From a virus (Duplodnaviria; Heunggongvirae; Uroviricota; Caudoviricetes), in the IMG/VR virus record IMGVR_UViG_3300043395_001986, positions 109,308 through 173,307 of that record: a DNA stretch of 64,000 nucleotides; one strand, given 5' to 3'. The position numbers were made by a program, and so were the translations under genes. The notes beneath the pieces are model-generated. The model saw only the letters and a list, made by a program, of their open reading frames with translations, did not search any database and had not been told where the DNA came from. Below are positions 1,264 to 52,051 of this stretch, in pieces. Numbering within the stretch: position 1 is the first letter of the stretch; each line of letters starts with the position of its first letter.

Positions 1264-3912
1264 ATGGCAACTTTTATACTGAAAAACAATAGCGGTTCTA
1301 TAACAGCAGGACAATTGGAATTTAACCCAGAAAGCAAATCATTAGCATTAGGTGATGGTTCCAAAGTAATTAATATAGCAAAACTAAACGATGTTAATAG
1401 TGGGAGCTTCAATATAAGTGGTGACTTATTTGTAAGTGGAAACGCTAATATTGTTGGTAATTTAACATTCGGAGATAATTCGGGAGCAGATACTGTCACT
1501 GTCGTTGCATCTTTATCATCATCTTTAATACCAGAAGGAAATAATGTACATGATTTAGGTAGTACAACAAAATACTGGAAAACAGGTTATATAACTGCAA
1601 TTACGGGTTCATTAAGTGGCTCTGTTAATGGTATAGATATTACCCCATTTAGCGCATCGGTATCGACATCAATTGGTAATTTAAATAATACATCTTCTAA
1701 TCATGAAAATAGAATTTTAAATTTAGAACAACATAGTGGTAGTGTTAATCAATTTACAGCATCCATAACTGCATCATTTAATACAACAAGTGGTAGTTTA
1801 AATGTAGTAAGTCAATCATTATTAAATGTATCAACTTCATATGTTGCAACTTCTCAATCATTAAATTTAGTAAGTTCATCTTTATTAACATTTAGTGCAT
1901 CTCAATATAATGCAGATAGTACATCATTTGATAGTAGATTAGATTTAGTAGAAGCAACGGCATCATATCTAAACACATCATTCAGCACTTCGGTAGATAG
2001 TAGATTGGATTTGATAGAACAAACAGGTTCTAATCATGAAAATAGAATTCATATTTTAGAATTATCACAATCTGCATTTGATACAGCAATTGAATTAGAT
2101 TCTACTAATGTAACTATTTACGGAAATTTGACGGTACAAGGAACACAGACGGCAATTCAATCCAATATTTTAAATGTAAAAGATTTAAACATTACAATTG
2201 CAAGTGGTTCTACCAATTCAGCAGCTGCAAATGGTGCCGGTATTAATATAGATGGTGCAAATGTAACAATGAGTTGGAGTGATGCAAATCAAAGAATAGA
2301 ATTAAATAAAGATTTTGCAGCAACCGGTTCAATAAGTTCATCAACAATTAATGGTATTGGAAATGTAACATTATATTCTGCATCAGTAGATAGTAGATTA
2401 GTTAGTTTAGAATTAACCGGTTCTAATTTTAGTACTAAAATAGCTAATTTAGAACAACATAGTGGTAGTGTTAATCAATTTACAGCATCCATAACTTCAT
2501 CATTTAATACAACATCTCAAAGTTTAAATTTAGTAAGTGCATCGTTATTTACATTTAGTGCATCTCAATATTTAGCAGATTCATCTTCGGTAAATAATAG
2601 ATTAATTAATGTAGAATCAACTGCATCATATTTAAATACAACATTTAGTTCTTCGATTAGTAATAGAACAACTTTATTAGAACAAACTGCATCTTATTTA
2701 AATACAACATTCTCAACATCAGTAGATAGTAGAATAGATGCATTAGAAAACTTTAGTGGTTCTGAATATAAAAATGATAGTAGTTCATTTGATACAAGAA
2801 TTAGTGCAAGTACATTAACATTTAACGATACAACGGGTCAAACAGGAATTGATTTTACACACAATGGCACACAGGTTAGTGCAATTGCAAGTGGATTAAG
2901 TACCACTTCAAATGTACATTTTGCCAGTGTAACCGCATCAAATAGTATTAGTGCATCTGGGACAGTTTATTGTGATACATTAGTAGCAAGTACATTGGTA
3001 GGTGCAACTTTACCTGTATTGGAATATGAAACAAATGGTACTTTGGGCAATCTTTTAATTAAAGGTGCAACTTCAAAATCAATTCAAGTTGTAGATACAA
3101 TTACGTTCACCGGAATGACACAAAATGGTATTGACCAATATAGTGCAACTGGTTTATATATGACAGGTTCTATTACTGCATCATTAGGATTTAGTGGTAG
3201 TGTTTCTGGTATTGGAAATGTAACATTATTTAGTTCATCAATTGACCAAAGAATTAAAGATGCAACTAACGAACAATATATTGCTGGGTTTGCAACAACA
3301 GCATCATTGCAAATAGTAAGTGCAAGTGCATGGGGAGCATTCCAAAGTGCAAGTTCTTATAGTGGAAGTTTTTATACAACTATAAATAATTTGAGTTCAT
3401 CTGTATATACATTCTCATCTTCAATTGATAGTAGAGTAGATACATTAGAAGGAACAACACATACTCACTCTAATAAAGCAAATTTAGATACAATAAATCA
3501 AAATTTAGGTACAACATCAACTGGTGTTCAATTTGCATCATTGGGTGTTGGAACTGCACCTGATGCAACTTATGAATTTAAAGTAGCAGGTGATATAGCA
3601 GCAAGTGGTGATATTGTTGCATTTAATTCTTCCGATGAAAGATTGAAAGAAAATATAAAACAAATTGAAAACGGATTAGAAAAAATAAATAAAATTTCTG
3701 GTTATGAATTTGATTGGAATGAAGATTTGCAAAAGGCAAGAAAAGGACATGATGTAGGTATACTGGCACATGAAATTGAAGAAATTCTTCCAGAAGCAGT
3801 GACTAGAAGAGATAATGGTTATTTAGCAGTAGATTACGAAAAAATAATTCCACTTTTAATACAATCTGTAAAAGAATTATCAGCTAAAGTAAAGGAATTG
3901 GAAAATAAGTAA
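1264..3912 (+). CDS. tail fibre with C-terminal intramolecular chaperone (peptidase S74-like)
   Basis: Ser/Thr-rich heptad repeats; C-terminal SDERLKENI...GILAHEIEEILPEAV...VDYEKIIPLLIQSVKEL. Confidence 0.85.
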   Translation: MATFILKNNSGSITAGQLEFNPESKSLALGDGSKVINIAKLNDVNSGSFNISGDLFVSGNANIVGNLTFGDNSGADTVTVVASLSSSLIPEGNNVHDLGSTTKYWKTGYITAITGSLSGSVNGIDITPFSASVSTSIGNLNNTSSNHENRILNLEQHSGSVNQFTASITASFNTTSGSLNVVSQSLLNVSTSYVATSQSLNLVSSSLLTFSASQYNADSTSFDSRLDLVEATASYLNTSFSTSVDSRLDLIEQTGSNHENRIHILELSQSAFDTAIELDSTNVTIYGNLTVQGTQTAIQSNILNVKDLNITIASGSTNSAAANGAGINIDGANVTMSWSDANQRIELNKDFAATGSISSSTINGIGNVTLYSASVDSRLVSLELTGSNFSTKIANLEQHSGSVNQFTASITSSFNTTSQSLNLVSASLFTFSASQYLADSSSVNNRLINVESTASYLNTTFSSSISNRTTLLEQTASYLNTTFSTSVDSRIDALENFSGSEYKNDSSSFDTRISASTLTFNDTTGQTGIDFTHNGTQVSAIASGLSTTSNVHFASVTASNSISASGTVYCDTLVASTLVGATLPVLEYETNGTLGNLLIKGATSKSIQVVDTITFTGMTQNGIDQYSATGLYMTGSITASLGFSGSVSGIGNVTLFSSSIDQRIKDATNEQYIAGFATTASLQIVSASAWGAFQSASSYSGSFYTTINNLSSSVYTFSSSIDSRVDTLEGTTHTHSNKANLDTINQNLGTTSTGVQFASLGVGTAPDATYEFKVAGDIAASGDIVAFNSSDERLKENIKQIENGLEKINKISGYEFDWNEDLQKARKGHDVGILAHEIEEILPEAVTRRDNGYLAVDYEKIIPLLIQSVKELSAKVKELENK
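1720..2514 (+). repeat. 69-nt direct repeat within fibre 1
   Basis: 1720-1788 and 2446-2514 differ at one position. Confidence 0.9.
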
Positions 3913-3966: not shown

Positions 3967-6900
3967 ATGGCACTTAAATTTAGACGTGGGACAACCGCAC
4001 AGAAATCAGGTTCGTTAGCAGTAGGAGAACCATATATTAACTATGACCTACAAACATTACAAATAGGAACGGACCAAGGAGATGTAACATTGTCTACAAC
4101 AAGTCCAACTGCAACATCAGCAGTAGCATCTATTTCCGCATCAAACTTTTTATCAGCTTCTTATTTAGAAATTGTAAATGATGCAAATATTAAAGGAAAT
4201 GTAACTATTGGTGGTACAATTCAAATTGGTGATAATACATCGGATACTATTAATGTAGTAGCATCATTGAGTTCTTCACTTATTCCGCAATCAGATAATA
4301 CCTATGATTTAGGTTCTCTTTCTAAATCTTGGAAAGACCTTTATATATCTACTGGTTCAATTAAATTTGTATCAGCAGGTACAATAGTAGGTTCATTATC
4401 AACAAATGCATCGGGATTACAATTAACAAACGATATATATGTTGCAAGTGATGGTAACACAGGTGTTAGAGTTGGTAGAGGTGCTGGAAGTAATACAACA
4501 TTTAATACTGCATTAGGTTATGCAGCATTAAACAGCAATACAACTGGACAATCAAATACAGCAGTAGGCGCAACGGCATTAACATCAAATAAATCTGGTG
4601 ATAGTAATGTGGCAGTTGGTACAACCGCATTATCATTTAATGAAGCTGGAAGTGATAATACTGCAGTTGGTACTCAAGCATTATATAAAAATGCGGGATA
4701 TCAAAATACAGCAGTAGGTAAAGAAACATTATTTAATAGTATTTCTGGTTCAGGCAATACTGCAGTCGGTGCAATTGCATTAAAAAGAATTGGTGATAAT
4801 GGCGGAAATAATACAGCAATTGGTTACCTAGCTGGACAATATGCAAGTGGTTCATCAAATTCAAACGTATATATTGGTAATGGAGCCGGTCCAACTGCAA
4901 GTGTTGAAGAAAGTGGAAAATTATATATTAACAACGCAGCAAGTAACACTCCATTAATTGGTGGTGATTTTACACAAAGAGAAATATATGTTGATGGTGA
5001 TATTATACCAGCAACAACAAATGCAAGAGATTTAGGTTCTTTAACAAATATTTGGAGAGACCTTTACATTTCTACTGGTTCAATTAAAATGGTATCAAAT
5101 GGTGTAGTTGTTTCCGTATTATCAAATACGGGAAATGGATTTGCATTAGACCAGGGTATTACTGCAAATGGTAATAGTTCATTTGGTACATCATCTGCAG
5201 CAGTAACATCGGTAACCGGTTCATTGAATGTAAGTGGTGCGGTAGCAGTAATTGGTTCAGTAAGTGCATCAACAATTACTGGTATTGGTAATGTAACAGC
5301 ATATTCATCTTCAGTAAATAGTAGAGTATCATCATTAGAATCATTCTCATCTTCATTAGGAAATGGATTTGCAACAGATGCAGAATTAGGAGTAGTAAGT
5401 GCAAGTGCATGGGGAGCATTCCAAAGTGCTTCTGCATACTCTGCATCTTTAGCAACTTCAATTAGTGCAAGTAAAGCAGAGTATACATCATTTAGTGCAA
5501 GTAATGCAACAAATGATAATACTCAAACAACAAATATAACAGCAGCTTCTGCAAGTGCATGGGGAGCATTCCAAAGTGCTTCTGCATACTCTGCATCTTT
5601 AGCAACTTCAATTAGTGAAAGTAATGCAAGTGCAGTAGGATATAGTGCTAGTGCAGCAAGTGCATTGAGTTCTGTAAGTGGTGCAGTAGCAACTTCATTA
5701 AACAATGCTAGTTCTTCTGCGTATTCAACATTTGCTAAATTAAATGGGGATAACACATTCACCGGAACACAAATTATTACTGGTTCACTTTATATAAGTT
5801 CTAATTTAATAGTTCAAGGTTCATCATCATTACAAAATATAACTGCAAGTGCAGTATCAATTGGTACTAATACTGTCATTTTAAATACAAATAACCCTGC
5901 TGTAAGATATGGTGGGTTATCGGTAACTGATAGTGGTAGTGCAGCAGGTAAGAGTGGTTCTTTATATTTTGATTCAACAGATGATGAGTGGATATTTGTA
6001 CATCAAGGAAATGCAGCAGTAACTTCATCAACAGTCATTACTGGTCCTGAAACCTATGATAATTTAGGCAACGAAACCCATTTAACTGATAATAGATTAG
6101 TTAAAGCAAAAAATGGTTTCCATATTGTTGATTCAAATATTTCTGATACTGGTACGAAAGTGAGTATCTCAAGTGATTTAGATGTAATAGGAGCAATAAG
6201 TTCATCAACTATAAATGGTATTGGAAATGTAACATTATATTCATCTTCAGTAGATAGTAGAATTATAACTAATGCAAATGCAGCAGCAGGAGCGTTCGCA
6301 AGTGCAAGTGCATATAGTTCATCTGCAGCAACTTCATTTAGTGCTAGTTTAGCAAACGTAACAGCAATTAGTAGTTCATTTGCGGCAAACACAATAACAA
6401 TAAATGGTACAGCAGTTAAATTAGGTGGTACTTTAACAACCGCACAAACTTTAGCAGGAGCAATTTCATCTTCAGCTCAGGTAAATGGTTTAAGTATTCT
6501 TTATAATTCAATGAGTATTGCTGGTACTTCAACTGCATTAGGTGGAACAATAAGTGCAGCAACAATTGGTAACGCAATTGGAGCATTTAGTTCATCAGCA
6601 CAAGTTAATGGTACTGCAATTCAAAATAATTCAATCACTATCAATGGTACATCAGTAGCATTAGGTGGTACTTTAACTACGGCTCAAACATTAGCCGGTG
6701 CAATAAGTTCATCAGCACAAGTTGACCATAACTCAACTACAAACTATTCAGCAAATAGACATATTGACCATACCGCAGTTTCAATTACAGCAGGTAGTGG
6801 TATTAGTGGTGGTGGTGATATTAGTGCAACTAGAACATTAACATTAGATACCGGTTCTGCACACTTTTTAGGTGGAGCAAGAGGAGCAATATCAGTATCA

Positions 6901-7520: not shown

Positions 7521-8531
7521 ATGTATGATGTTTATTATACAACTGGTTACGGAAATAAAGTAGGAGCTGGAAGTGATTTGTGGGTTAACAATTGGATTGA
7601 ATGTGTGGCTCCAAAACTTACAAAAAAATCAGTATTACTAATTCATAGAAGTAAGCCAAAAAATTACGAAGAGGGGAATGAACTTCCCCTTTCCGTTTTT
7701 TGGCAAAGTGATGACCCAATTAAATTTGATGAAATGTTGGATGAATGTGAAAATATACACATTCTACACGGACATTATTATCCATCACATGGATTAATAA
7801 GAAATCTAAATAAAATAAAAAGTTATGTAATGCATAACTCAATTGATTTGAGTTTAAAAGCTGGTTTATTCTCCGATGCACCAGGTGTACAACACTTTGG
7901 AGCAGATAGTGAATGGGAAAATAATATAATTGAAAAAGCAGAAAAAAGAATTTGGGTTGGAGTATTTGATACACCAAAACATGCTAATTATAAATTTGAA
8001 AATATCCCAAATTATTATGAGTTTATTCATAATAAAAAACTATCAGATTCAACAATAGTTGGATTTGCAGCAAGAACTGAAACACGAAAGAGAGTTTGGT
8101 ATTTAGAAAATATAAAAAGTGTAATTTTTACAAATGCTAAAATTTTAAGAGATATCTGGGAGAAAAAATATGGATGTGATTTTAGAAAATCAAAAGTATA
8201 TAATTTTGATTGGCAATTTCACACTAATTTTTTTGAAATGGATTGGGGAATAGCACATTGTGCATTTAACTATGAACCATTTGGATATGGTATATTTCAA
8301 GCCGTTGATTGGGGTAAACTTCCAATAATTAGTAATACATGGAATCCTGATTTTGGCTATCCATTTAGAGCTGATAATAAAAAAGAATTTGAAAATTGTG
8401 TTGAAAATATAAAAAAATTAAGTTACGAAGAAAAAGAAATACATTTTAATAAAATAAAAATGTTTTTATCTGATAATTATTCCGACAAAGAATTGTGGAC
8501 AAAAAGATTATTAGATATTTATATTAGTTAA
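7521..8531 (+). CDS. putative GT-B (GT4-like) glycosyltransferase
   Basis: C-terminal YEPFGYGIFQAVDWGKLPII resembles the GT4 EPFG..EA..G.P motif. Confidence 0.6.
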   Translation: MYDVYYTTGYGNKVGAGSDLWVNNWIECVAPKLTKKSVLLIHRSKPKNYEEGNELPLSVFWQSDDPIKFDEMLDECENIHILHGHYYPSHGLIRNLNKIKSYVMHNSIDLSLKAGLFSDAPGVQHFGADSEWENNIIEKAEKRIWVGVFDTPKHANYKFENIPNYYEFIHNKKLSDSTIVGFAARTETRKRVWYLENIKSVIFTNAKILRDIWEKKYGCDFRKSKVYNFDWQFHTNFFEMDWGIAHCAFNYEPFGYGIFQAVDWGKLPIISNTWNPDFGYPFRADNKKEFENCVENIKKLSYEEKEIHFNKIKMFLSDNYSDKELWTKRLLDIYIS

Positions 8532-44281: not shown

Positions 44282-44503
44282 ATGATAATTAGTTATGTAA
44301 TAGGTATTGGTTGTAGTTTTATAATGGCTGCAATTATTTCATTCTTTTGGGTAAGAGGAATTGATAATATGAAAAAGAATTACCCAGATTATACAGGAGA
44401 AGATTTTTTGAATTGGGGAAATGATGATAAAAAGAGTGATAAAAAGGAAAGTGGTAGTTATAAAGACCTGGAAAAATTAGGTAGAGGACGTTCAAAATAT
44501 TAA
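44282..44503 (+). CDS. small membrane protein
   Basis: MIISYVIGIGCSFIMAAIISFFWV hydrophobic N-terminus. Confidence 0.6.
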   Translation: MIISYVIGIGCSFIMAAIISFFWVRGIDNMKKNYPDYTGEDFLNWGNDDKKSDKKESGSYKDLEKLGRGRSKY

Positions 44504-44507
44504 AATT

Positions 44508-44798
44508 ATGATACAATTTATTAAGAAAAATTACGGAAAATTAGGAATGAGTTTTGCATTAGTTATGCTAGTAATTAACTATTTCCAAAGACAAGAATTA
44601 GTACAATTAAGAAATAAACCAGAAGTTGTAGTTGGTGGTGATATTCAAAAAGCAGAATTAATTGATTCATTACAAGGCGAATTGTTTAATTCTCAAAACA
44701 TAAACGGCAGATATGAAATGAGTTTAGAGAATTTAAAAATGAAACACCCACAAGCAGCTGCAGATTTTATTTATTATATGGAGCACGAAACTGAATAA
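44508..44798 (+). CDS. hypothetical protein with N-terminal TM segment
   Basis: 96-aa ORF. Confidence 0.65.
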   Translation: MIQFIKKNYGKLGMSFALVMLVINYFQRQELVQLRNKPEVVVGGDIQKAELIDSLQGELFNSQNINGRYEMSLENLKMKHPQAAADFIYYMEHETE

Positions 44799-44809
44799 AA
44801 TTTTATAAT

Positions 44810-45187
44810 ATGGGAGAACAACATGTACCATTAACAATCAATGATGATGGATTGGTAACAAAAGTAGGACATGATATGGGTGGGTCCTATGAAATAAAAA
44901 CACCTAAATATGAACAATTAGAAATCCAATTTCCAAAGGTAGATGGAAATGGACAATCTATTTATGAAACGTGTATTATGTGTGGTAATGAAACTACTAC
45001 ATTAAAAAGTACACATATAGATTTTAGAACTGGATATGTAGAGGGAGCGGGACAACTATGTTGGGAGTGTTATACCGGTAAATCTAGGAGTCTTATTACA
45101 ATAGATGAAAGAACTATCATTGATACACCAAACGATGCAGAATTGGGTGCAAAGGTACGACAAATGTATTGGGATAGTAAATCATAA
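44810..45187 (+). CDS. hypothetical protein with CxxC...CxxC motifs
   Basis: CIMCG...GAGQLCWEC. Confidence 0.7.
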   Translation: MGEQHVPLTINDDGLVTKVGHDMGGSYEIKTPKYEQLEIQFPKVDGNGQSIYETCIMCGNETTTLKSTHIDFRTGYVEGAGQLCWECYTGKSRSLITIDERTIIDTPNDAELGAKVRQMYWDSKS

Positions 45188-45195
45188 TTATATAT

Positions 45196-45570
45196 GGGGA
45201 TGCCATGGAATTGATTGCAATGTAAATGGTAGTACCACACGTAGACAAAGGAAGAAAGTCTTTAAATACTTACAAAACAATAACTGACGAAATGTCAACA
45301 ATGACCTTTGATTCTTTAATGGAATTCATCGGCGCTGATTACGCAGTAGCTGCCTAATCACAATCGGGTCGGAATACATATAACCTAGGAACAGAAGTAT
45401 CTATAAAGGTGGAAAATTAACTGAACCCAAAATCGAGTTAAAATAATGATGGCGATGAATTATCAAAACTCGCCTAATTTGTAAGTTTTGATAAAATTTA
45501 CTAAACGTGTGATATGCTGGTATTATTAGTTCTTTGTAAGACAGGGGTTCGATTCCCCTCATCTCCACTA
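45196..45570 (+). ncRNA. ssrA: tmRNA
   Basis: 5' GGGGATG pairs with 3' CATCTCC-A (G3:U); T-arm GGGGTTCGATTCCCC; tag ORF 45286-45357 ends YAVAA*. Confidence 0.92.
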
Positions 45571-45746
45571 AAATTAAATAGTGTGGTATCTGATACTGAC
45601 AGCTCTTTGGGAGTGATGGGTGTGAAAGCAGATTGAAAAGGGTACGACCCAACCCCACACTATTTAATTTAAAAAAATATACAAATATTTTTGGAAAATT
45701 GAATTTTTTGTAGTATATTTGTATATATATAAAAACGAAATAACAT

Positions 45747-45818
45747 CGTGGCGTAGAGCAGAGGTAGCTCACAAGGCTCATAACCTTGGGGTCGCAGGTT
45801 CGAATCCCGCCGCCGCAA
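45747..45818 (+). tRNA. tRNA-fMet (CAT)
   Basis: C1:A72 mismatch; anticodon loop CTCATAA; TTCGAAT T-loop. Confidence 0.88.
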
Positions 45819-45919
45819 CAAATGTTAAGGTTGAAGCCATCAACTAATAAAACCGATTGAGTGACGTATGCAGTACGGAAGAAAGCCGGACACCTTAACA
45901 AAAAAAAAAACCCAAAGAA

Positions 45920-45952
45920 ATTTGGTAGTTTGAAAAAAGTATCGTATATTTG
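45920..45952 (+). promoter_or_regulatory. Bacteroidota-type sigma-A promoter
   Basis: ATTTGG...TCGTATATTTG upstream of the large ncRNA. Confidence 0.75.
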
Positions 45953-46029
45953 TATTGTTAAGTTTGAAACTTATAGGCAATGAAAGATACTCGGTATTCA
46001 AACTTTTAGTTCTTTAAAAGATTAAAAAT

Positions 46030-46565
46030 ACTTTACATAGTAGACTTGTTCTACATAGTAAACAACGGCCGCATATGGTCGTCAAATAAACTACGAAAGT
46101 AGGATAAAGTGGATTGTTAGGTTTACACAATCTGCGGTTTATAGGTCTTTGGACTTATGAGCTTGAGTATGCAAGTGGGGTATCATTTGAGCTTTGTACG
46201 AAAGGGTAACACTATATCGGAAGAGTTTGAATGACCGGGGTAAGTAGATACTTCGGTTGAGTTCGGAAGAACAATAAGAATAACTCATAGAACATCAGTA
46301 AGAAATATAACGCTAATCACTTTATACAATTGCGGTGTTCAATTCAAGAGGAGTCTTAAAACCAAGCCATCCGAAAGGACGTAAGGTATGTTAATGTACA
46401 GGTGGTGCTGTTATTAACCATTGATAAATCGTACCAACGATTATTGGTGAAGATTTCTTATAGAATGGTACTGACGATAGTACATCGGGTAGTTCAGTAT
46501 TCTCTCGACCAAAAGTTGAGGGAACTGGTTGGCAAACCGCTACCTGAACCCATCTACAAACCAAC
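46030..46565 (+). ncRNA. large ornate ncRNA, ROOL/GOLLD-like (family unconfirmed)
   Basis: ORF-poor; several GNRA-capped hairpins; long-range GTAGAT/ATCTAC pairing; upstream promoter; adjacent to tRNAs. Confidence 0.6.
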
Positions 46566-46614
46566 CCTTTTATCAAAATGAGGATTTTGACAATTCAATT
46601 TAAAAATAAAAGCT

Positions 46615-47245
46615 TAAGTGTTTGCCAGTTACGGACGAAAGATGTGTACATAGTAGGGAGCTGTTCCTTGCCACGATACCTTCGCAAGAGGTCTGTGATT
46701 CTTTAAAAAAACTTCTAACACCGCAAGTGTTAATCAGGTCGGCAGATTTGAAGAAGCGGAGTATAAAGAGAGTAAGACGTAACTCAAAGACTGATAGTCT
46801 CAAATCATCCACATTGTATCGGTACTACTCAAAAGGTAGTGGATAAGAAAGGAAACAATAATCTTTCTAAAGTCGGTACTCCCAATGAGGTAATCTCACT
46901 CATTTATTTTTTTACAATGGTTGTATATTGGTTCGATTCCAATAGTAAAAACAAATAGTCCGTTTGCAATAATAGCTCGAATAGTGAGAAAGAAGCAGTT
47001 AGGACTTTAACTAAACAACAAAACCTTTGAAACTATTCACAAGTATCGTGGTCATTTTAGCATAGAGTTCAGATGTGCGAACCTCTCAAGCAGTTTTAGA
47101 CCTAATAAAAAAACTAAAATGTAGCATAGATACATCCGGTTTTGTGGGGAAGTTTTAGACCAATAAATAAACGCAATCTATACGATATGATTGCCAGTTA
47201 TGTAGTAGGCCGCTATAAGAGAGAGCTGTTCCCCTTTTTCTCTCA
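46615..47245 (+). ncRNA. unassigned large structured ncRNA block(s)
   Basis: Multiple hairpins; duplicated TTGCCAGTTA/TAGTAGG/GAGCTGTTCC motif; no convincing ORF. Confidence 0.5.
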
Positions 47246-47350
47246 TTTTAAATGGCTAATTTGACGAGGCTAGTATTAACCAGAGCATGACTTGGATGGC
47301 GTATTTTGAAGTTAGATTAGCTTTTTTAAAAAAACTATATTTATTATAAG

Positions 47351-47446
47351 ATGATGAACTTGAATTTACATACGAATTGTTATCAACCGACGCTTAATGT
47401 GTGGGGTAGCATTATTATGTATAATTCAGGGGATATAAAAGGATAA
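47351..47446 (+). CDS. putative 31-aa leader peptide
   Basis: MMNLNLHTNCYQPTLNVWGSIIMYNSGDIKG*, between an ATATTTAT motif and a terminator. Confidence 0.45.
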   Translation: MMNLNLHTNCYQPTLNVWGSIIMYNSGDIKG

Positions 47447-47474
47447 TAGTATAGTAGATTATATAAATTATTTG

Positions 47475-47508
47475 AAAACCCTGACTTAAAAAAGTTGGGG
47501 TTTTTTTG
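47475..47508 (+). terminator. intrinsic terminator / attenuator before the tRNA array
   Basis: AAAACCCTGACT / AGTTGGGGTTTT stem followed by T7. Confidence 0.8.
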
Positions 47509-47515
47509 TTTATAG

Positions 47516-47589
47516 GCTTCTTTAGCTCAGCAGGTTAGAGCGACTGACTGTTAATCAGTAGGTCCTTGGTTCGAGCCCAAGAAGAAGCG
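47516..47589 (+). tRNA. tRNA-Asn (GTT)
   Basis: Cloverleaf; GCTTCTT/AAGAAGC acceptor stem. Confidence 0.93.
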
Positions 47590-47594
47590 CAATT

Positions 47595-47676
47595 GGGAGT
47601 ATTGTGTAGCGGCAATCACTGCGGACTGTAAATCCGCTCTCATTCGAGTTCGAAGGTTCGAGTCCTTCTACTCCCA
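47595..47676 (+). tRNA. tRNA-Tyr (GTA)
   Basis: Cloverleaf with long variable arm. Confidence 0.93.
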
Positions 47677-47682
47677 CAAAAA

Positions 47683-47754
47683 GCAGGTGTCGTATAATGG
47701 CCATTACTCCTTCCTTCCAAGTAGGAGACGGAGGTTCGATTCCTCTCACCTGCT
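47683..47754 (+). tRNA. tRNA-Gly (TCC)
   Basis: Cloverleaf; U73. Confidence 0.9.
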
Positions 47755-47759
47755 CAAAT

Positions 47760-47830
47760 TGCCTCTTTGTGTAATGGTAGCACAAAAGTTTTTGGTTCTT
47801 TTAGTTTAGGTTCGAATCCTAAAGAGGCAT
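47760..47830 (+). tRNA. tRNA-Gln (TTG)
   Basis: Cloverleaf; TGCCTCT/AGAGGCA acceptor stem. Confidence 0.88.
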
Positions 47831-47835
47831 CACTT

Positions 47836-47909
47836 TGGAATATAGCTCAATTGGTTAGAGCATCCGTCTGATACGCGGAAGGTTGTAGGTTCGAGTCCCA
47901 CTATTCCAA
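47836..47909 (+). tRNA. tRNA-Ile (GAT)
   Basis: Cloverleaf; anticodon loop CTGATAC. Confidence 0.9.
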
Positions 47910-47970
47910 CCGATGTTTTGTAGTAATGAGGTAAGGTTAAAACTGACATACATAATACAAAACATAAATT

Positions 47971-48041
47971 GCGGGTTTGGTGCAACGGCAGCATGTAAGT
48001 CTCCAAAACTTTTGATGGGAGTTCGAATCTCTCAACCCGTG
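47971..48041 (+). tRNA. tRNA-Trp (CCA)
   Basis: Cloverleaf; anticodon loop CTCCAAA. Confidence 0.88.
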
Positions 48042-48049
48042 CAAACAAT

Positions 48050-48122
48050 GGCTCTATGGTGAAATGGATTATCACGCAACGCTACGGACGTTGAATTTTG
48101 GGTTCGAATCCTAATGGGGCTA
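48050..48122 (+). tRNA. tRNA-Arg (ACG)
   Basis: Cloverleaf; anticodon loop CTACGGA. Confidence 0.9.
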
Positions 48123-48137
48123 CTAAAACAAAATGAT

Positions 48138-48401
48138 ATGAAAACATTTAAAGATTTGGAATTTAAATCTCACCCAATGGGTATGGGAGTAATAGCTAGA
48201 GAAGATTTTCATAATGGTTATGGAGTGACCGTTGTAAAAGGACCGCACACATATGGTGGAGATAAAGGATTATATGAATTGGCAGTTTGGAAAGATGGAA
48301 CAATTCATTACGATAATCCAGTTGCAATGGGAGATGTGGTTGGATATTTAAGAGAAGAAGATGTTACCGATGCTATTTTATTAGTTCAGAAATTTGAATA
48401 A
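48138..48401 (+). CDS. hypothetical protein within the tRNA array
   Basis: MKTFKDLEFKSHPMG...; ATG at 48138 lies outside tRNA-Arg. Confidence 0.75.
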   Translation: MKTFKDLEFKSHPMGMGVIAREDFHNGYGVTVVKGPHTYGGDKGLYELAVWKDGTIHYDNPVAMGDVVGYLREEDVTDAILLVQKFE

Positions 48402-48403
48402 AA

Positions 48404-48474
48404 GGCGAGTTGGCCGAGTGGTGAGGTGGAGCTCTGCAAAAGCTTTCACATAGGTTCGATTCCTATACTCGCCT
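48404..48474 (+). tRNA. tRNA-Cys (GCA)
   Basis: Cloverleaf; U73. Confidence 0.92.
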
Positions 48475-48480
48475 CAACAT

Positions 48481-48552
48481 GGTGGTTGTAGCCTAATGGT
48501 AGGGCGAAAGTTTGTGGCACTTTATGTGAGAGTTCGATTCTCTCCAATCACA
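48481..48552 (+). tRNA. tRNA-His (GTG)
   Basis: Cloverleaf; anticodon loop TTGTGGC; G-1 present. Confidence 0.88.
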
Positions 48553-48556
48553 CAAA

Positions 48557-48640
48557 GGAAGGATGGGTGAGGGGTTTAAACCAGCAGTTTACTAAACTGC
48601 CGACTCAAAAGGTCCGTGAGTTCGAATCTCACTCCTTCCG
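48557..48640 (+). tRNA. tRNA-Ser (ACT)
   Basis: GCAGT-TTACTAA-ACTGC anticodon arm; long variable arm; G73. Confidence 0.85.
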
Positions 48641-48641
48641 C

Positions 48642-48782
48642 ATGAAAACAAATAAATTTGAAACTAACAAAAGAGTAAATCGTATTGTTAGAATTAGAAA
48701 AATTATTAGAGAAAATGGAGCTTGTTTAATATGTGTGAGGAGATGGAATGGTGGAATTAAAAAATATAGAACAAACTGCTAA
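48642..48782 (+). CDS. small basic hypothetical protein
   Basis: 46-aa ORF from ATG 48642 between two tRNAs. Confidence 0.45.
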   Translation: MKTNKFETNKRVNRIVRIRKIIRENGACLICVRRWNGGIKKYRTNC

Positions 48783-48784
48783 AT

Positions 48785-48865
48785 ACCCCGTTGGTGGAAT
48801 TGGTAGACACGCTGGTTTTAGGCACCAGTGCGAAAGCATTAAGAGTTCGAGTCTCTTATGGGGTA
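48785..48865 (+). tRNA. tRNA-Leu (TAG)
   Basis: Cloverleaf with variable arm; A73. Confidence 0.92.
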
Positions 48866-48880
48866 CAAAAATAAAGTATT

Positions 48881-49336
48881 ATGAAATATAAACGGCTATT
48901 CGATAGTAAAGAAGTAGATTTAGTTGAATATGTAAAAGACTGGTTAGAGTTAAAACCAAATGCAGAAATACTGATTGGTTGTGACTCACAAAACTTTTCA
49001 GATAAAACGATATACGCTATTGTAGTGGCAATTTATGATGTGGGTAAAGGTGCACATGTTTTATATAATAGGTGGAAAACGAAAAGAGAACCAACTAGAA
49101 ATATTAGATTATTGAATGAAGTTTGGTATGCAGTTGAAACTGCCGAATATATGAAAAATGCAGGTATTCCTGAAGTTAAGTGGATTGATATAGATATTAA
49201 TCCAGACCCAAAATTCAAATCTAACGAAGTTTTAAGGCAAGCGGTGGGTTTAGTGGAAGGAATGGGATATAAGGTAAGATACAAAACTTTGGGACCTATT
49301 GCAACTTACGCAGCTGACCATTTAGTTAAAATTTAA
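48881..49336 (+). CDS. RNase H-like protein (DUF458/YkuK-like)
   Basis: ILIGCDSQ, RLLNEV and DIDIN acidic motifs; A..AAD C-terminus. Confidence 0.7.
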   Translation: MKYKRLFDSKEVDLVEYVKDWLELKPNAEILIGCDSQNFSDKTIYAIVVAIYDVGKGAHVLYNRWKTKREPTRNIRLLNEVWYAVETAEYMKNAGIPEVKWIDIDINPDPKFKSNEVLRQAVGLVEGMGYKVRYKTLGPIATYAADHLVKI

Positions 49337-49431
49337 ACTTTTTTAGTTTTTTGGGTAGCTGTAAAAAATTTTTTGGAGTTAAAAATTTTGCCACGTGCGA
49401 ATTTTATACTATATTTGTAACATACAAAACT

Positions 49432-49503
49432 GCTCGGTTGGACTAGGGGTTAGGTCACATCCCTTTCACGGATGTAGCACGGGTTCGAATCCCGTACCGA
49501 GTA
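49432..49503 (+). tRNA. tRNA-Glu (TTC)
   Basis: Cloverleaf; anticodon loop CTTTCAC. Confidence 0.92.
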
Positions 49504-49698
49504 CAAAGGTACACTATAATTCGGTCAAGCCACATTTAGCCGTTAGTGTATTGATAGGTAAGAGAAAAAGAAGTGGCTGGGACGTTTCTCTTACCGACCA
49601 TATAGGTTGATTGGAATTTGCCCATTGTGGCCAAATCGGTTAGAAATGCCAGTCGTAAAAGTAGATGTCCACGCACCCATCTTCTACTTTCCTAAATT

Positions 49699-49772
49699 GC
49701 CTTGATAGCTCAGTTGGCCAGAGCATCTGATTTGTAATCAGAGGGTCGTCAGTTCGAATCTGACTCGAGGCT
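49699..49772 (+). tRNA. tRNA-Thr (TGT)
   Basis: Cloverleaf; anticodon loop TTTGTAA. Confidence 0.92.
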
Positions 49773-49831
49773 CAAAAGGACTTAAATGGTCGAAGTACAA
49801 GACCGGTGTAGGTTAGTCCCACCTACAAAAA

Positions 49832-49905
49832 GGAGTGGTAGTTCAGTTGGTTAGAATGCTGCCCTGTCACGGCAGAGGTCGCGGGTTCGAGTCCCGTCCA
49901 CTCCG
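49832..49905 (+). tRNA. tRNA-Asp (GTC)
   Basis: Cloverleaf; G73. Confidence 0.94.
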
Positions 49906-50148
49906 CAAACACAATTAGGTTGTATATGCAATTAGCTCGGCAACCTTTTACACCTGAAGATGTGAGATGGTTGTGTTTTAAAGTTGTTCTATACACTTAA
50001 CACGCTTAGTAACAAAGCAAGGCACATAGAGTTACATAGAAGCATGGAGTAATTACCCAACGCTACATTCGGACTACAAATGTGATTAAGTTCAGACGTT
50101 GTAGAGAAAGAGATGTTAAGAGTAAACTTGCAAGTTAGAACAACTAAT

Positions 50149-50220
50149 GGACTCATAGTTAAATGGATATAACTACTGCCTTCTAAGCAGTTATTGGTAG
50201 TTCGATTCTACCTGAGTCTA
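50149..50220 (+). tRNA. tRNA-Arg (TCT)
   Basis: Cloverleaf; anticodon loop CTTCTAA. Confidence 0.9.
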
Positions 50221-50225
50221 CAAAT

Positions 50226-50299
50226 TGGGAAATAGCGCAGTCCGGTAGCGTACTTGGTTTGGGACCAAGGGGTCGCAGGTTCGAATCCTGTTTTCCCAA
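50226..50299 (+). tRNA. tRNA-Pro (TGG)
   Basis: Cloverleaf; anticodon loop TTTGGGA. Confidence 0.92.
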
Positions 50300-50358
50300 C
50301 ATAATATTTGGTAGTTTAAAAAAATTATCTTATATTTGTAAAAGTTATTTGATAAGCA

Positions 50359-50443
50359 GCCTTGGTGTTGGAATTGGTAGACAAGACAGACTTAAAATCT
50401 GTTTCGCTGAAAGCGAGTGCGGGTTCGATTCCCGCCTGAGGCA
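50359..50443 (+). tRNA. tRNA-Leu (TAA)
   Basis: Cloverleaf with variable arm. Confidence 0.92.
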
Positions 50444-50463
50444 CGGACGGAAAAACCAAAGTT

Positions 50464-50537
50464 GGGGAAGTAGCTCAGTTGGCTAGAGCATCTGCCTTGC
50501 ACGCAGAGGGTCATGGGTTCGACTCCCTTCTTCTCCA
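50464..50537 (+). tRNA. tRNA-Ala (TGC)
   Basis: G3:U70 pair; anticodon loop CTTGCAC. Confidence 0.93.
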
Positions 50538-50543
50538 CAATAT

Positions 50544-50649
50544 GCCGGAGTGGCGGAAAGAGATGTGTACAATCTTGAGACGTTCCTATTCTAGAGTGGT
50601 GGGGTAACCGAAAAGGACCCCGTGAAGTTAACCAATACTTCCTCCGGCA
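50544..50649 (+). ncRNA. tRNA-like RNA with intact acceptor stem and aberrant core
   Basis: GCCGGAG/CTCCGGC-A-CC ends; no canonical D-arm or T-loop. Confidence 0.55.
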
Positions 50650-50704
50650 CCTTATGGGCTTTGGTGATATAGCCATAAAGAGAGATAGATGTTTCTCATT
50701 CACT

Positions 50705-50740
50705 AAAATAGGTAGGTGTTTCCACCACCTGCTTATTTTT
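50705..50740 (+). terminator. terminator-like hairpin within the array
   Basis: AAAATAGGTAGGTG / CACCTGCTTATTTT. Confidence 0.55.
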
Positions 50741-50743
50741 ATT

Positions 50744-50818
50744 GGACCTGTAGCTCAGTTGGTTAGTAGCACCTGACTCATAATCAGGGGGTCATAGGTT
50801 CAAGTCCTATCGGGTCCA
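50744..50818 (+). tRNA. tRNA (CAT), elongator Met or Ile2
   Basis: Fully paired G1-C72; anticodon loop CTCATAA. Confidence 0.88.
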
Positions 50819-50847
50819 CAAATTATTAAAATTTAAAACATAAAACT

Positions 50848-51123
50848 ATGGAATTTTTTGGTTATTATTATTTGATTTGTTTGGTGTATTGTTTGTATAT
50901 GTCATTCAAAAAATGGAACAGAGATGTTAAAACAGGTGGGTTAGGTATTTCACCTGGTTTAGACACAATGGCTATGTTGATTATGTGTTGGGCATTGGCT
51001 CCAATTGATATATTTTTGACATGGGTTAGGGTCTATAAAGAAGCAGAAGAAGCTAGAAGAAATCAAAGTAAATTTGAAATGGATACTAAAGATTTCGAAA
51101 AAGAAAAAGGTAATATCTATTAA
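50848..51123 (+). CDS. small membrane protein
   Basis: Two hydrophobic segments and a charged tail. Confidence 0.7.
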
Positions 51124-51130
51124 TATAACA

Positions 51131-51215
51131 GGAGAGATGGCAGAGTGGTTGAATGCACCGGTCTTGAAAACCGGCATACTGAAAGGTATCTGGGGTTCGA
51201 ATCCCTGTCTCTCCG
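51131..51215 (+). tRNA. tRNA-Ser (TGA)
   Basis: Cloverleaf; long variable arm; G73. Confidence 0.94.
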
Positions 51216-51311
51216 CAAATTTGGAGCACGAAGAACTAACATAATCGGAGTGCTTAACCCATAAGTTGATTAAATTCAATTATAAGGTTTCCAGTGAGTT
51301 AGTTCAAAAAT

Positions 51312-51471
51312 TGTAAGGTGGTGAAATTGTGCACACATCGGCAGACACACCCACTCGTCTCGTGGGCGCTGAGTTTGAAATAGGTAAATGAATATGGGTT
51401 GACCACAAAGCCGGCTATTTTGTTCTTTACTGAATCACAGCATGAAGGTTCGATTCCTTCCCTTACAGCCA
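51312..51471 (+). ncRNA. 160-nt tRNA-like RNA with expanded D-loop and about 77-nt variable region
   Basis: TGTAAGG/CCTTACA-G-CCA; T-arm GAAGGTTCGATTCCTTC; CCCAC-TCGTCTC-GTGGG arm. Confidence 0.7.
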
Positions 51472-51484
51472 AAATACTATATTT

Positions 51485-52051
51485 ATGAGTATGAGAATTA
51501 AACTATTTGTTGCATTACCAAGTGAGTTTCCAATAGAAAAAGCACCATTAGGAGTAGATGTTATTTATACAGGAGTTGGTAAAATAAACGCAGCAATTAA
51601 AGCTACTCAAACATTAGAAAATTTATCACCAGCAGATACTATTGTTATTAATTATGGAAGTGCAGGTGGACATATCACTATGATTAATAGTTTGTTTAAA
51701 TGTAAAAACTTTGTCCAAAGGGATATGGATGCAAGACCATTTGCTAAAAAAACAATTACACCATTTGATGAAGTTGTTTGGAATAAATTAAATTTAGTAA
51801 ATGATTCAATTGATTTTAACGGATTAGGATATCATACTTGTCATACACAAGACCGATTTGAAACATCACCAAATAGAATTTCCGATATGGAAGCATACTC
51901 AATCGCAAAAGTATGTAAGATTTATGGATTTGATTTTACAGCATACAAATATATAAGTGATAGTGGTAATCACAAAGATTGGTCAGAAAATCACAATAAA
52001 GGGATTGAATTATTTTTAGAACAATTAAAAAAAGATTTTAAAATAGGATAA
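51485..52051 (+). CDS. purine nucleoside phosphorylase / MTA-SAH nucleosidase-like protein
   Basis: TGVGKINAA, INYGSAGG, DMEAYSIA and KYISD motifs. Confidence 0.8.
   Translation: MSMRIKLFVALPSEFPIEKAPLGVDVIYTGVGKINAAIKATQTLENLSPADTIVINYGSAGGHITMINSLFKCKNFVQRDMDARPFAKKTITPFDEVVWNKLNLVNDSIDFNGLGYHTCHTQDRFETSPNRISDMEAYSIAKVCKIYGFDFTAYKYISDSGNHKDWSENHNKGIELFLEQLKKDFKIG

Follow-up and report, generated by a model that had tools for sequence, protein, structure and literature searches.

What decides when a phage transcribes its tRNA genes? How phage tRNA arrays are regulated, and what they are for, are open questions, to which the locus described here would bring a concrete, testable mechanism driven by demand. 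It lies in a 237,307-bp IMG/VR virus record of ~31% G+C, of which we analyzed a 64,000-nt part (hereafter the window). Between an ORF-poor block and tRNA-Asn, the window holds a leader stretch composed of a promoter-like box, a small open reading frame (ORF), and a terminator. An initial annotation, made from these letters alone, had read the stretch as a transcription attenuator in which the 3' part of the ORF pairs with the 5' arm of the terminator; the tests on homologues reported below support that reading. The features are as follows.

45196–51216, plus strand: tmRNA, then tRNA-Met, about 1.7 kb without long ORFs, then 20 tRNAs
46485–46902, plus strand: GOLLD RNA, a full-length Rfam match (269 bits, E = 1.5e-76) in the ORF-poor ~1.7 kb between tRNA-Met and the leader
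47336–47344, plus strand: promoter-like box TATATTTAT, with the ATG 6 nt on
47351–47446, plus strand: leader ORF, 31 codons (ATG plus 30) and TAA, peptide MMNLNLHTNCYQPTLNVWGSIIMYNSGDIKG
47359–47366, plus strand: segment 1, CTTGAATT, codons 3–6, putative anti-antiterminator pairing with segment 2 (from the minimum free energy [MFE] fold and a duplex search)
47367–47421, plus strand: central hairpin within the ORF, TACATA ... TATGTA (from fold and conservation)
47423–47432, plus strand: segment 2, AATTCAGGGG, predicted to pair with segment 1 or segment 3
47475–47487, plus strand: segment 3, the 5' arm of the terminator, AAAACCCTGACTT, with CCCTGA at 47479–47484
47492–47507, plus strand: segment 4, the 3' arm of the terminator, AAGTTGGGGTTTT, plus the T-run to 47507
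47516–47590, plus strand: tRNA-Asn(gtt), starting 8 nt past the T-run
47516–51216, plus strand: tRNA array, 20 tRNAs with tRNA-Asn first, the genes that would be regulated

A family of leaders precedes tRNA-Asn in lake phages

Seen within the window only, the leader ORF is unremarkable: 97 ORFs of at least 20 codons overlap positions 45000–50000, a stretch with few protein genes. Searches of a cultured-phage database (blastn, megablast) returned tRNA matches only and no relatives. We retrieved relatives with a 151-aa ORF located inside the tRNA array, which led to 80 related viral loci, many of them sharing the order tmRNA, tRNA-Met, long gap, tRNA-Asn array. A homologous small ORF lies 5' of tRNA-Asn in all related loci examined. 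Scanning further with the aligned peptides and with a nucleotide profile brought the total to 60 distinct leaders from related viral and metagenome contigs, all with the order promoter box, ORF, terminator, tRNA. The phages that carry these leaders, like the 237-kb phage, are lake phages.

A protein search detected 161 clusters of the leader peptide in metagenomes, and among the 120 clusters listed, every name given by the source is "hypothetical protein"; Pfam and PHROGs yielded nothing meaningful for the peptide. An Rfam cmscan of 44500–52000 at E ≤ 1 gave no match in 47338–47515, including none to T-box, riboswitch, or Trp, His, Leu, or Thr leader families, and elsewhere in that range it matched only GOLLD, tmRNA, tRNAs, and weak chance matches. 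Among bacterial and archaeal genomes there was a single leader match, L155 (CAYNGR010000338.1, 1597 bp), on a contig binned to a Cyanobium metagenome-assembled genome. We did not adopt Cyanobium as the host, because this 1.6-kb contig is too short and is probably a mis-binned phage fragment.

The leader ORF follows a promoter-like box and is under coding selection

The 8-mer ATATTTAT occupies 47337–47344 within the promoter-like box; the initial annotation had recognized this motif but placed its start one base off, at 47338. No 8-mers of this genome are more enriched in the 70 nt upstream of genes than this one and TATTTATA, with 32 of 52 copies so placed for ATATTTAT and 33 of 47 for TATTTATA. 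By strand, ATATTTAT occurs 52 times on the plus and 10 times on the minus strand of the genome, and several phage genes begin 5–7 nt past such a box. A TAYAYWTAW box stands 5–19 nt before the leader ATG in 55 of the 60 homologues. We infer that the box is a promoter, and it resembles the TAnnTTTG -7 box of Bacteroidota; relatives carry TATCTTTG or TATATTTG.

With the ATG only 6 nt past the box, the mRNA is likely to be leaderless, or close to it. Shine-Dalgarno-like cores precede 7% of the phage's genes, which is the background level, and in a phage that does not use such sites their absence at the leader ORF is normal and no objection to its translation. The promoter motif and the absence of Shine-Dalgarno sites suggest a host with Bacteroidota-like promoters and with Shine-Dalgarno-independent, often leaderless initiation. 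Genome-wide (G000), TATATTTAT(A) is the dominant upstream motif, and boxes of the TATATTTG type are enriched too.

Several measures indicate that the ORF encodes a peptide. Family members have 38–54 codons, the window member being shortened, and the ATG is invariant. Across 21 leader variants, frame 0 contains no stops, whereas frame 1 has 99 and frame 2 has 102. The median dN/dS is 0.44 (~1600 pairs), compared with 0.94 and 1.25 when the same alignment is read in shifted frames; dN is smaller than dS in 97% of pairs, and the most variable codon position is the third. The initial annotation had proposed looking upstream of tRNA arrays in related phages for a conserved short ORF with compensatory antiterminator pairs; the former is found in the 60 leaders and, as judged from these comparisons, is conserved under coding selection. 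Its translation is inferred. Within the peptide, His7 and Trp19 are invariant and Gly21, Met24, and Phe25 nearly so, several positions remain invariant over more than 100 variants, and several lineages do without the middle third. That the peptide is under purifying selection could denote that it has a function of its own.

A terminator adjoins the first tRNA gene

The window hairpin, 47475–47504, consists of 13 pairs (two of them G-U) around an AAAA loop and is followed by a seven-T run to 47507, with tRNA-Asn beginning at 47516, so the strong terminator and the tRNA-Asn after it are as the initial annotation described them. A terminator scan places the hairpin at 47474–47505 and finds no terminator-like site of more than 5 pairs elsewhere in 44500–52000 (7.5 kb). 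The hairpin is present in all 60 homologues. Measured from the start of the T-run, the tRNA begins 10–17 nt downstream in 57 of the 60, and the first tRNA behind the terminator is tRNA-Asn in 58. This spacing leaves no room for a separate tRNA promoter between the two, and since the terminator adjoins the first tRNA, transcription of the array has to cross it. In one relative (L025:4620–4716), a tRNA-like sequence with an Asn-like CTGTTAA anticodon loop lies past the terminator and is not called by ARAGORN.

Four segments covary as putative alternative helices

The 179-nt leader stretch folds well as a whole (z = -5.5). In its MFE structure, codons 3–6 (CTTGAATT) pair with AATTCAGG, the same 3' segment that supplies the antiterminator strand. 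The part of segment 2 available to segment 1 spans 47423–47430; the antiterminator part, TCAGGG at 47426–47431, is complementary to CCCTGA at 47479–47484, confirming the complementarity first noticed in the window.

The homologues place these segments consistently. The best complement of the terminator 5' arm in the whole ORF ends 11–23 nt before the stop in 60 of 60 leaders; the antiterminator that it would form measures 8–10 bp in most relatives and down to 6 bp in some. Upstream, the sequence that pairs best with segment 2 is at ORF nt 6–20 in 55 of 60. On a shorter alignment (A3, 54 sequences), helix 2:3 is paired in 91% of cells, and both sides change in 5 of its 10 pairs (U-A to C-G, G-C to A-U, A-U to G-C, and others), supplying the compensatory antiterminator pairs that the initial annotation had proposed looking for. 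Changes on both sides of 2:3 fill 35 cells versus 13.3 ± 2.4 in shuffles, none of 500 reaching 35, and slid registers pair at 55% or less. Helix 3:4 in the same alignment is 98.6% paired, with changes on both sides in 4 pairs.

We distinguished 42 four-segment haplotypes; for each of 1:2, 2:3, and 3:4, cognate combinations outperformed the permuted in every one of 2000 permutations. Several lineages have the same position altered in all four segments. Examples, in the order segments 1, 2, 3, 4, are:

CTTTAAC / GTTAGAGG / CCTCTAAC / GTTAGGGG
CTCTTAAC / GTTAAGGG / CCCTTAAC / GTTAAGGG
CCTTGAC / GTCAGGG / CCCTGAC / GTCGGGG
CTTGAA / TTCAGGGG / CCCTGA / GTTGGGG (window)

The shuffle and permutation controls were not corrected for sequence relatedness. 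MAFFT set segment 1 out of register and misplaced segment 2 of the window, and pairing 1:2 was accordingly assessed by duplex search and permutation; RNAalifold, run on an alignment of the whole ORF (A4), predicted no structure. By this comparative evidence, the four segments covary as putative alternative helices 1:2, 2:3, and 3:4 in the manner of the trp attenuator, and across the homologues the leader features are far beyond chance.

Folding predictions agree with a balanced switch. Full transcripts are predicted to adopt 1:2 plus 3:4 in 18 of 21 cases, and nascent RNAs ending at segment 3 to adopt 2:3 in 21 of 21. As modeled, the nascent RNA prefers 2:3 even without a ribosome, and termination in the untranslated state would thus rest on kinetics. 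Within the central hairpin, the blocks TACATAC and GT.TGT are nearly invariant (57 sequences) and show no covariation; the hairpin's role is unknown, and it is possibly an RNA polymerase pause or a spacer element.

The amino acids of the leaders match the tRNAs behind them

We counted amino-acid types in 167 distinct peptides of the family. All 20 amino acids occur in 56 of 56 peptides of 52 aa, in 55 of 56 of 53 aa, and in 6 of 7 of 39–40 aa; among proteome windows of equal length, only 0.2%–2% contain all 20. Rare residues appear about once per peptide. The position of the single Cys varies over at least six alignment columns and that of the single Tyr is mainly one of two, yet hardly any peptide has lost either. 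Such a distribution is more consistent with selection to keep every codon type represented than with selection on a protein fold.

No codon is repeated in a run in the leaders, and Asn is not enriched, at 9.2% of residues versus 7.0% in the proteome. We rejected a sensor specific for Asn or Trp on the grounds of this small difference, the lack of tandem codons, and the fact that Trp is a singleton, as His and Cys are; what is sensed is probably general decoding.

In more distant relatives, the tRNAs are split into blocks, each with an unrelated leader of the same four-segment design: a short ORF, a complement of the terminator arm near the ORF's end, a terminator, and a tRNA. Their peptides begin, for example, MRQFTHTMSFTICSKW..., MKNINNIL..RPLNNGNGYGVQP..., or MKHCISYHFSLKAAW... 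The leaders located before such sub-arrays are listed here with the fraction of their own block's amino acids that they contain.

L064: 1378–1540
L066: 3303–3470 and about 520–680 (10/10 and 10/10)
L044: 3279–3445 and about 1650–1810 (11/11 and 11/11)
L049: about 3420–3580 and about 7600–7750 (10/10 and 8/8)
L056: 3654–3815 (9/9)
L063: about 320–470 (10/10)
L028: about 5080–5230 (17/18)

Coverage is also 10/10 in L074. The chance of such a match between a leader and its tRNA block ranges from 0.001 to 0.1 each.

A geometric test asked whether all amino-acid types lie upstream of the limit at which a stalled ribosome still leaves segment 2 free, a condition that the leaders satisfy only in part. 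Long variants place 19–20 of 20 types there, with Tyr at the boundary, and short variants 17–18 of 20. In the short variants, some types occur only at or within segment 2, and under the simple model a stall there should not cause antitermination.

Two loci (L003, ~4600–4745; L011, ~440–580) carry truncated leader-like ORFs (MKSLTTH.TICNPII...) before tRNA-Ile, with the terminator kept and almost no complement in segment 2 (-1.9 and -5.2 kcal/mol). These may be decayed attenuators in arrays without the Asn-to-Lys block.

A model for attenuation of the tRNA array

We consider it likely that the leader is a ribosome-mediated (leader-peptide) transcription attenuator controlling the phage tRNA array, although we have no expression, 5'-end, or read-through data. 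In the scheme we propose, transcription would start at the promoter-like box to give a nearly leaderless mRNA, and the short ORF would be translated while polymerase heads for the strong intrinsic terminator adjoining tRNA-Asn. The outcome would hinge on segment 2, which may choose either segment 1, in codons 3–6, or segment 3, the 5' arm of the terminator. A slow ribosome, lagging or stalled before it has covered about two thirds of the ORF, would hold segment 1 apart and leave segment 2 free, so that the 2:3 antiterminator forms and polymerase continues into the tRNA genes. A fast ribosome would reach the stop codon and sit on or beside segment 2, permitting the 3:4 terminator and ending transcription. 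Without a ribosome, 1:2 would form first and again allow 3:4.

The scheme draws on sequence elements, coding selection, covarying alternative helices, and leader/tRNA matching, all established by comparing sequences; the promoter, translation, the kinetics of coupling, the signal, and the response of read-through to stalling or to charged tRNA are inferred. Given leaders with all 20 amino acids and the matching in split arrays, the signal is most likely the decoding speed of the codons read by the array's tRNAs, which would amount to negative feedback on tRNA supply. In other words, production of the phage's own tRNAs is probably confined to times of slow decoding by ribosomes. We lean, with some reserve, toward the broader proposition that large phages possess a translational speedometer, a mini-gene that selection keeps supplied with every amino acid, or with exactly those its tRNA block serves, and whose translation controls a terminator, so that the phage produces tRNAs on demand, whenever one of them becomes scarce. 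Host tRNAs depleted or cleaved, whether in the course of infection or by anticodon-nuclease defences, could be among the causes of such scarcity; that tRNA cleavage is a trigger, as the initial annotation had it, is speculation.

Other explanations of the leader

An attenuator might respond to a different signal. In leaders of the nascent-peptide arrest type, exemplified by TnaC, the Erm leaders, and the PA5471.1 leader, the peptide itself halts the ribosome, and a conserved phage peptide could do so for a small molecule, a phage or host factor, or translation stress. Such an arrest would account for purifying selection in the ORF's own frame, for the invariance of His7, Trp19, and other positions over more than 100 variants, and for a leader with no single-codon run and with Asn at little above its proteome level. 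The invariant residues, however, are mostly amino acids present once per peptide, as selection for at least one of each would give, and single Cys, Tyr, and Arg codons shift columns yet stay. Nor would arrest by a particular peptide predict that unrelated leaders in split arrays match their own tRNA blocks or that several lineages can dispense with the middle third of the peptide, and we regard this explanation as unlikely.

Two further readings deny the ribosome its part. If the leader were an RNA-only switch, akin to a riboswitch or T-box, with a ligand- or tRNA-binding domain closed by 1:2 and an incidental reading frame, then the strong nucleotide conservation in mid-ORF, which extends to synonymous sites and includes the invariant or near-invariant TACATAC, GTGGATTAT, and GGC, would be expected, and a closing helix 1:2 with an expression platform is indeed a typical riboswitch layout. 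The missing Shine-Dalgarno site also fits, but the genome does not use such sites anyway. An incidental frame is hard to reconcile with in-frame stops numbering 0 versus ~100 in each other frame, with a low dN/dS solely in the leader frame, or with an invariant ATG and a stop at a constrained distance past segment 2; an all-20-amino-acid content would be meaningless for untranslated RNA, and no Rfam T-box or riboswitch matched at E ≤ 1. We give this possibility hardly any weight. Only a little more credence is due to the suggestion that the ORF is no more than a common small phage gene followed by a terminator of its own, the tRNAs being expressed through constitutive partial read-through or another promoter and the complementarities having no regulatory role. 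The peptide family is, after all, conserved and widespread (161 clusters), the pairing is weak in the window alone, and the spacer of some relatives contains a near -7-type box (AATATTTG). That box is absent from many variants (L013, L086, L087, and L004), and its absence led us to reject a separate tRNA promoter between stop and terminator as a general feature. The terminator moreover adjoins the tRNA in 57 of 60 leaders. Covariation of three mutually exclusive helices across 42 haplotypes, segment positions fixed relative to both start and stop codons, and an amino-acid set that tracks the tRNA set are likewise not what an ordinary gene would require, which makes this reading very unlikely in our judgment.

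Relation to known attenuators

Ribosome-mediated attenuation, the reading we prefer, is itself textbook biology, represented in E. coli and Salmonella by the leader-peptide attenuators trpL, hisL, leuL, thrL, and pheL and by the multivalent ilvGMEDA leader. As in these amino-acid operons, the phage element comprises a short ORF, inferred to be translated, and helices 1:2, 2:3 (antiterminator), and 3:4 (terminator and U-run), the ribosome's position would pick the fold, and across the family, though only in part for the window copy, the leader codons correspond to the regulated product. Unlike them, it belongs to a phage and would regulate tRNAs rather than biosynthetic enzymes; it contains about one copy of every amino acid and no run of one codon; its segment 2 lies inside the ORF, 11–23 nt before the stop, and not past it; and its mRNA is probably leaderless, without a Shine-Dalgarno site, and matched by no Rfam leader family. 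In E. coli, the pheST attenuator (pheM leader) uses a run of Phe codons to sense a single amino acid, and what it controls is a synthetase. This attenuator shares with the phage leader, as we propose it to work, attenuation of a gene of the translation apparatus and feedback on charged tRNA, but the phage target is a tRNA array. The T-box riboswitch binds uncharged tRNA directly and has no ORF. Here too a choice between terminator and antiterminator reports tRNA status and controls genes of the translation apparatus, in contrast to which the phage leader has an ORF under coding selection and no T-box match.

Ribosome stalling also relieves a terminator in the leaders of resistance genes, namely mef/mel (PMC4335068), msrD (PMC10314930), yxjB (PMC6851288), and a MexXY regulator (PMC13041342), where the stall is reported to come from a ribosome-bound drug and to depend on the nascent peptide. 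The likeness lies in a stall on a short ORF without a specific amino-acid run that relieves a downstream terminator. Unlike these, the phage leader has nothing drug-related about it, and across the family the codon set matches the downstream tRNA genes.

In our full-text literature searches, no publication turned up that describes attenuation acting on tRNA genes or on phage tRNA arrays. What would be new here is attenuation of the trp-operon style acting on tRNA genes, that is, if the model is true, homeostatic control of the tRNA genes themselves, which would extend classical attenuation to such genes and to hosts without Shine-Dalgarno usage. It would bear on the debate over whether phage tRNAs offset codon-usage mismatch, host tRNA decay, or anticodon-nuclease defences. 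The all-20 leader would also be an unusual case of selection on a peptide's composition rather than its fold, and the element could act as a compact, natural sensor of decoding capacity.

The leader copy in the window

The window copy is the shortest leader found in the family. Its reading in the initial annotation as a 31-codon ORF (47351–47446) with 16 amino-acid types, including five Asn and one Trp, is borne out by the sequence. It lacks Ala, Glu, Arg, and Phe codons, the only such outlier in the family, and despite the missing codons tRNA-Ala, tRNA-Glu, and tRNA-Arg are present in its array; it thus covers 14 of the array's 17 amino-acid types. Its antiterminator has 6 bp and a 47-nt loop, against a terminator of 13 pairs. 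When the ORF was shuffled with dinucleotides preserved, 3.8% of shuffles equaled or beat its duplex with the terminator 5' arm, so that the evidence from the window alone is weak, the pairing being marginally better than chance (p about 0.04). Through a deletion, segment 2 became fused to where the central hairpin ends. Segment 1 has altered as well (C-G to A-U), keeping its pairing with the new segment 2, an argument that selection has continued. This copy may be a weaker or partly decayed switch.

The genes tRNA-Val, tRNA-Phe, and tRNA-Lys, which directly follow tRNA-Asn in relatives (L002, L004, L006, L008, L009, and others), are absent from the entire phage genome. The window leader alone has Met at position 2, where 98 of 101 have Lys, and Tyr in place of the near-invariant Phe. 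We set aside a link between these substitutions (K2M and F25Y) and the missing tRNA-Lys and tRNA-Phe, as it rests on one instance and the leader still has Lys and Val codons.

Just 5' of the promoter box, a further conserved element (47254–47334) forms a 12-bp stem (GGCTAATTTGAC / GTTAGATTAGCT) that encloses ~45 nt, with TTTTTT after it (z = -2.0). It has blastn matches in many of the related loci, and in L044, L046, L066, and L074 it is found inside the tRNA array, immediately before tRNA-Asp. The element may be the 3' end or terminator of upstream RNAs, or it may be derived from a tRNA.
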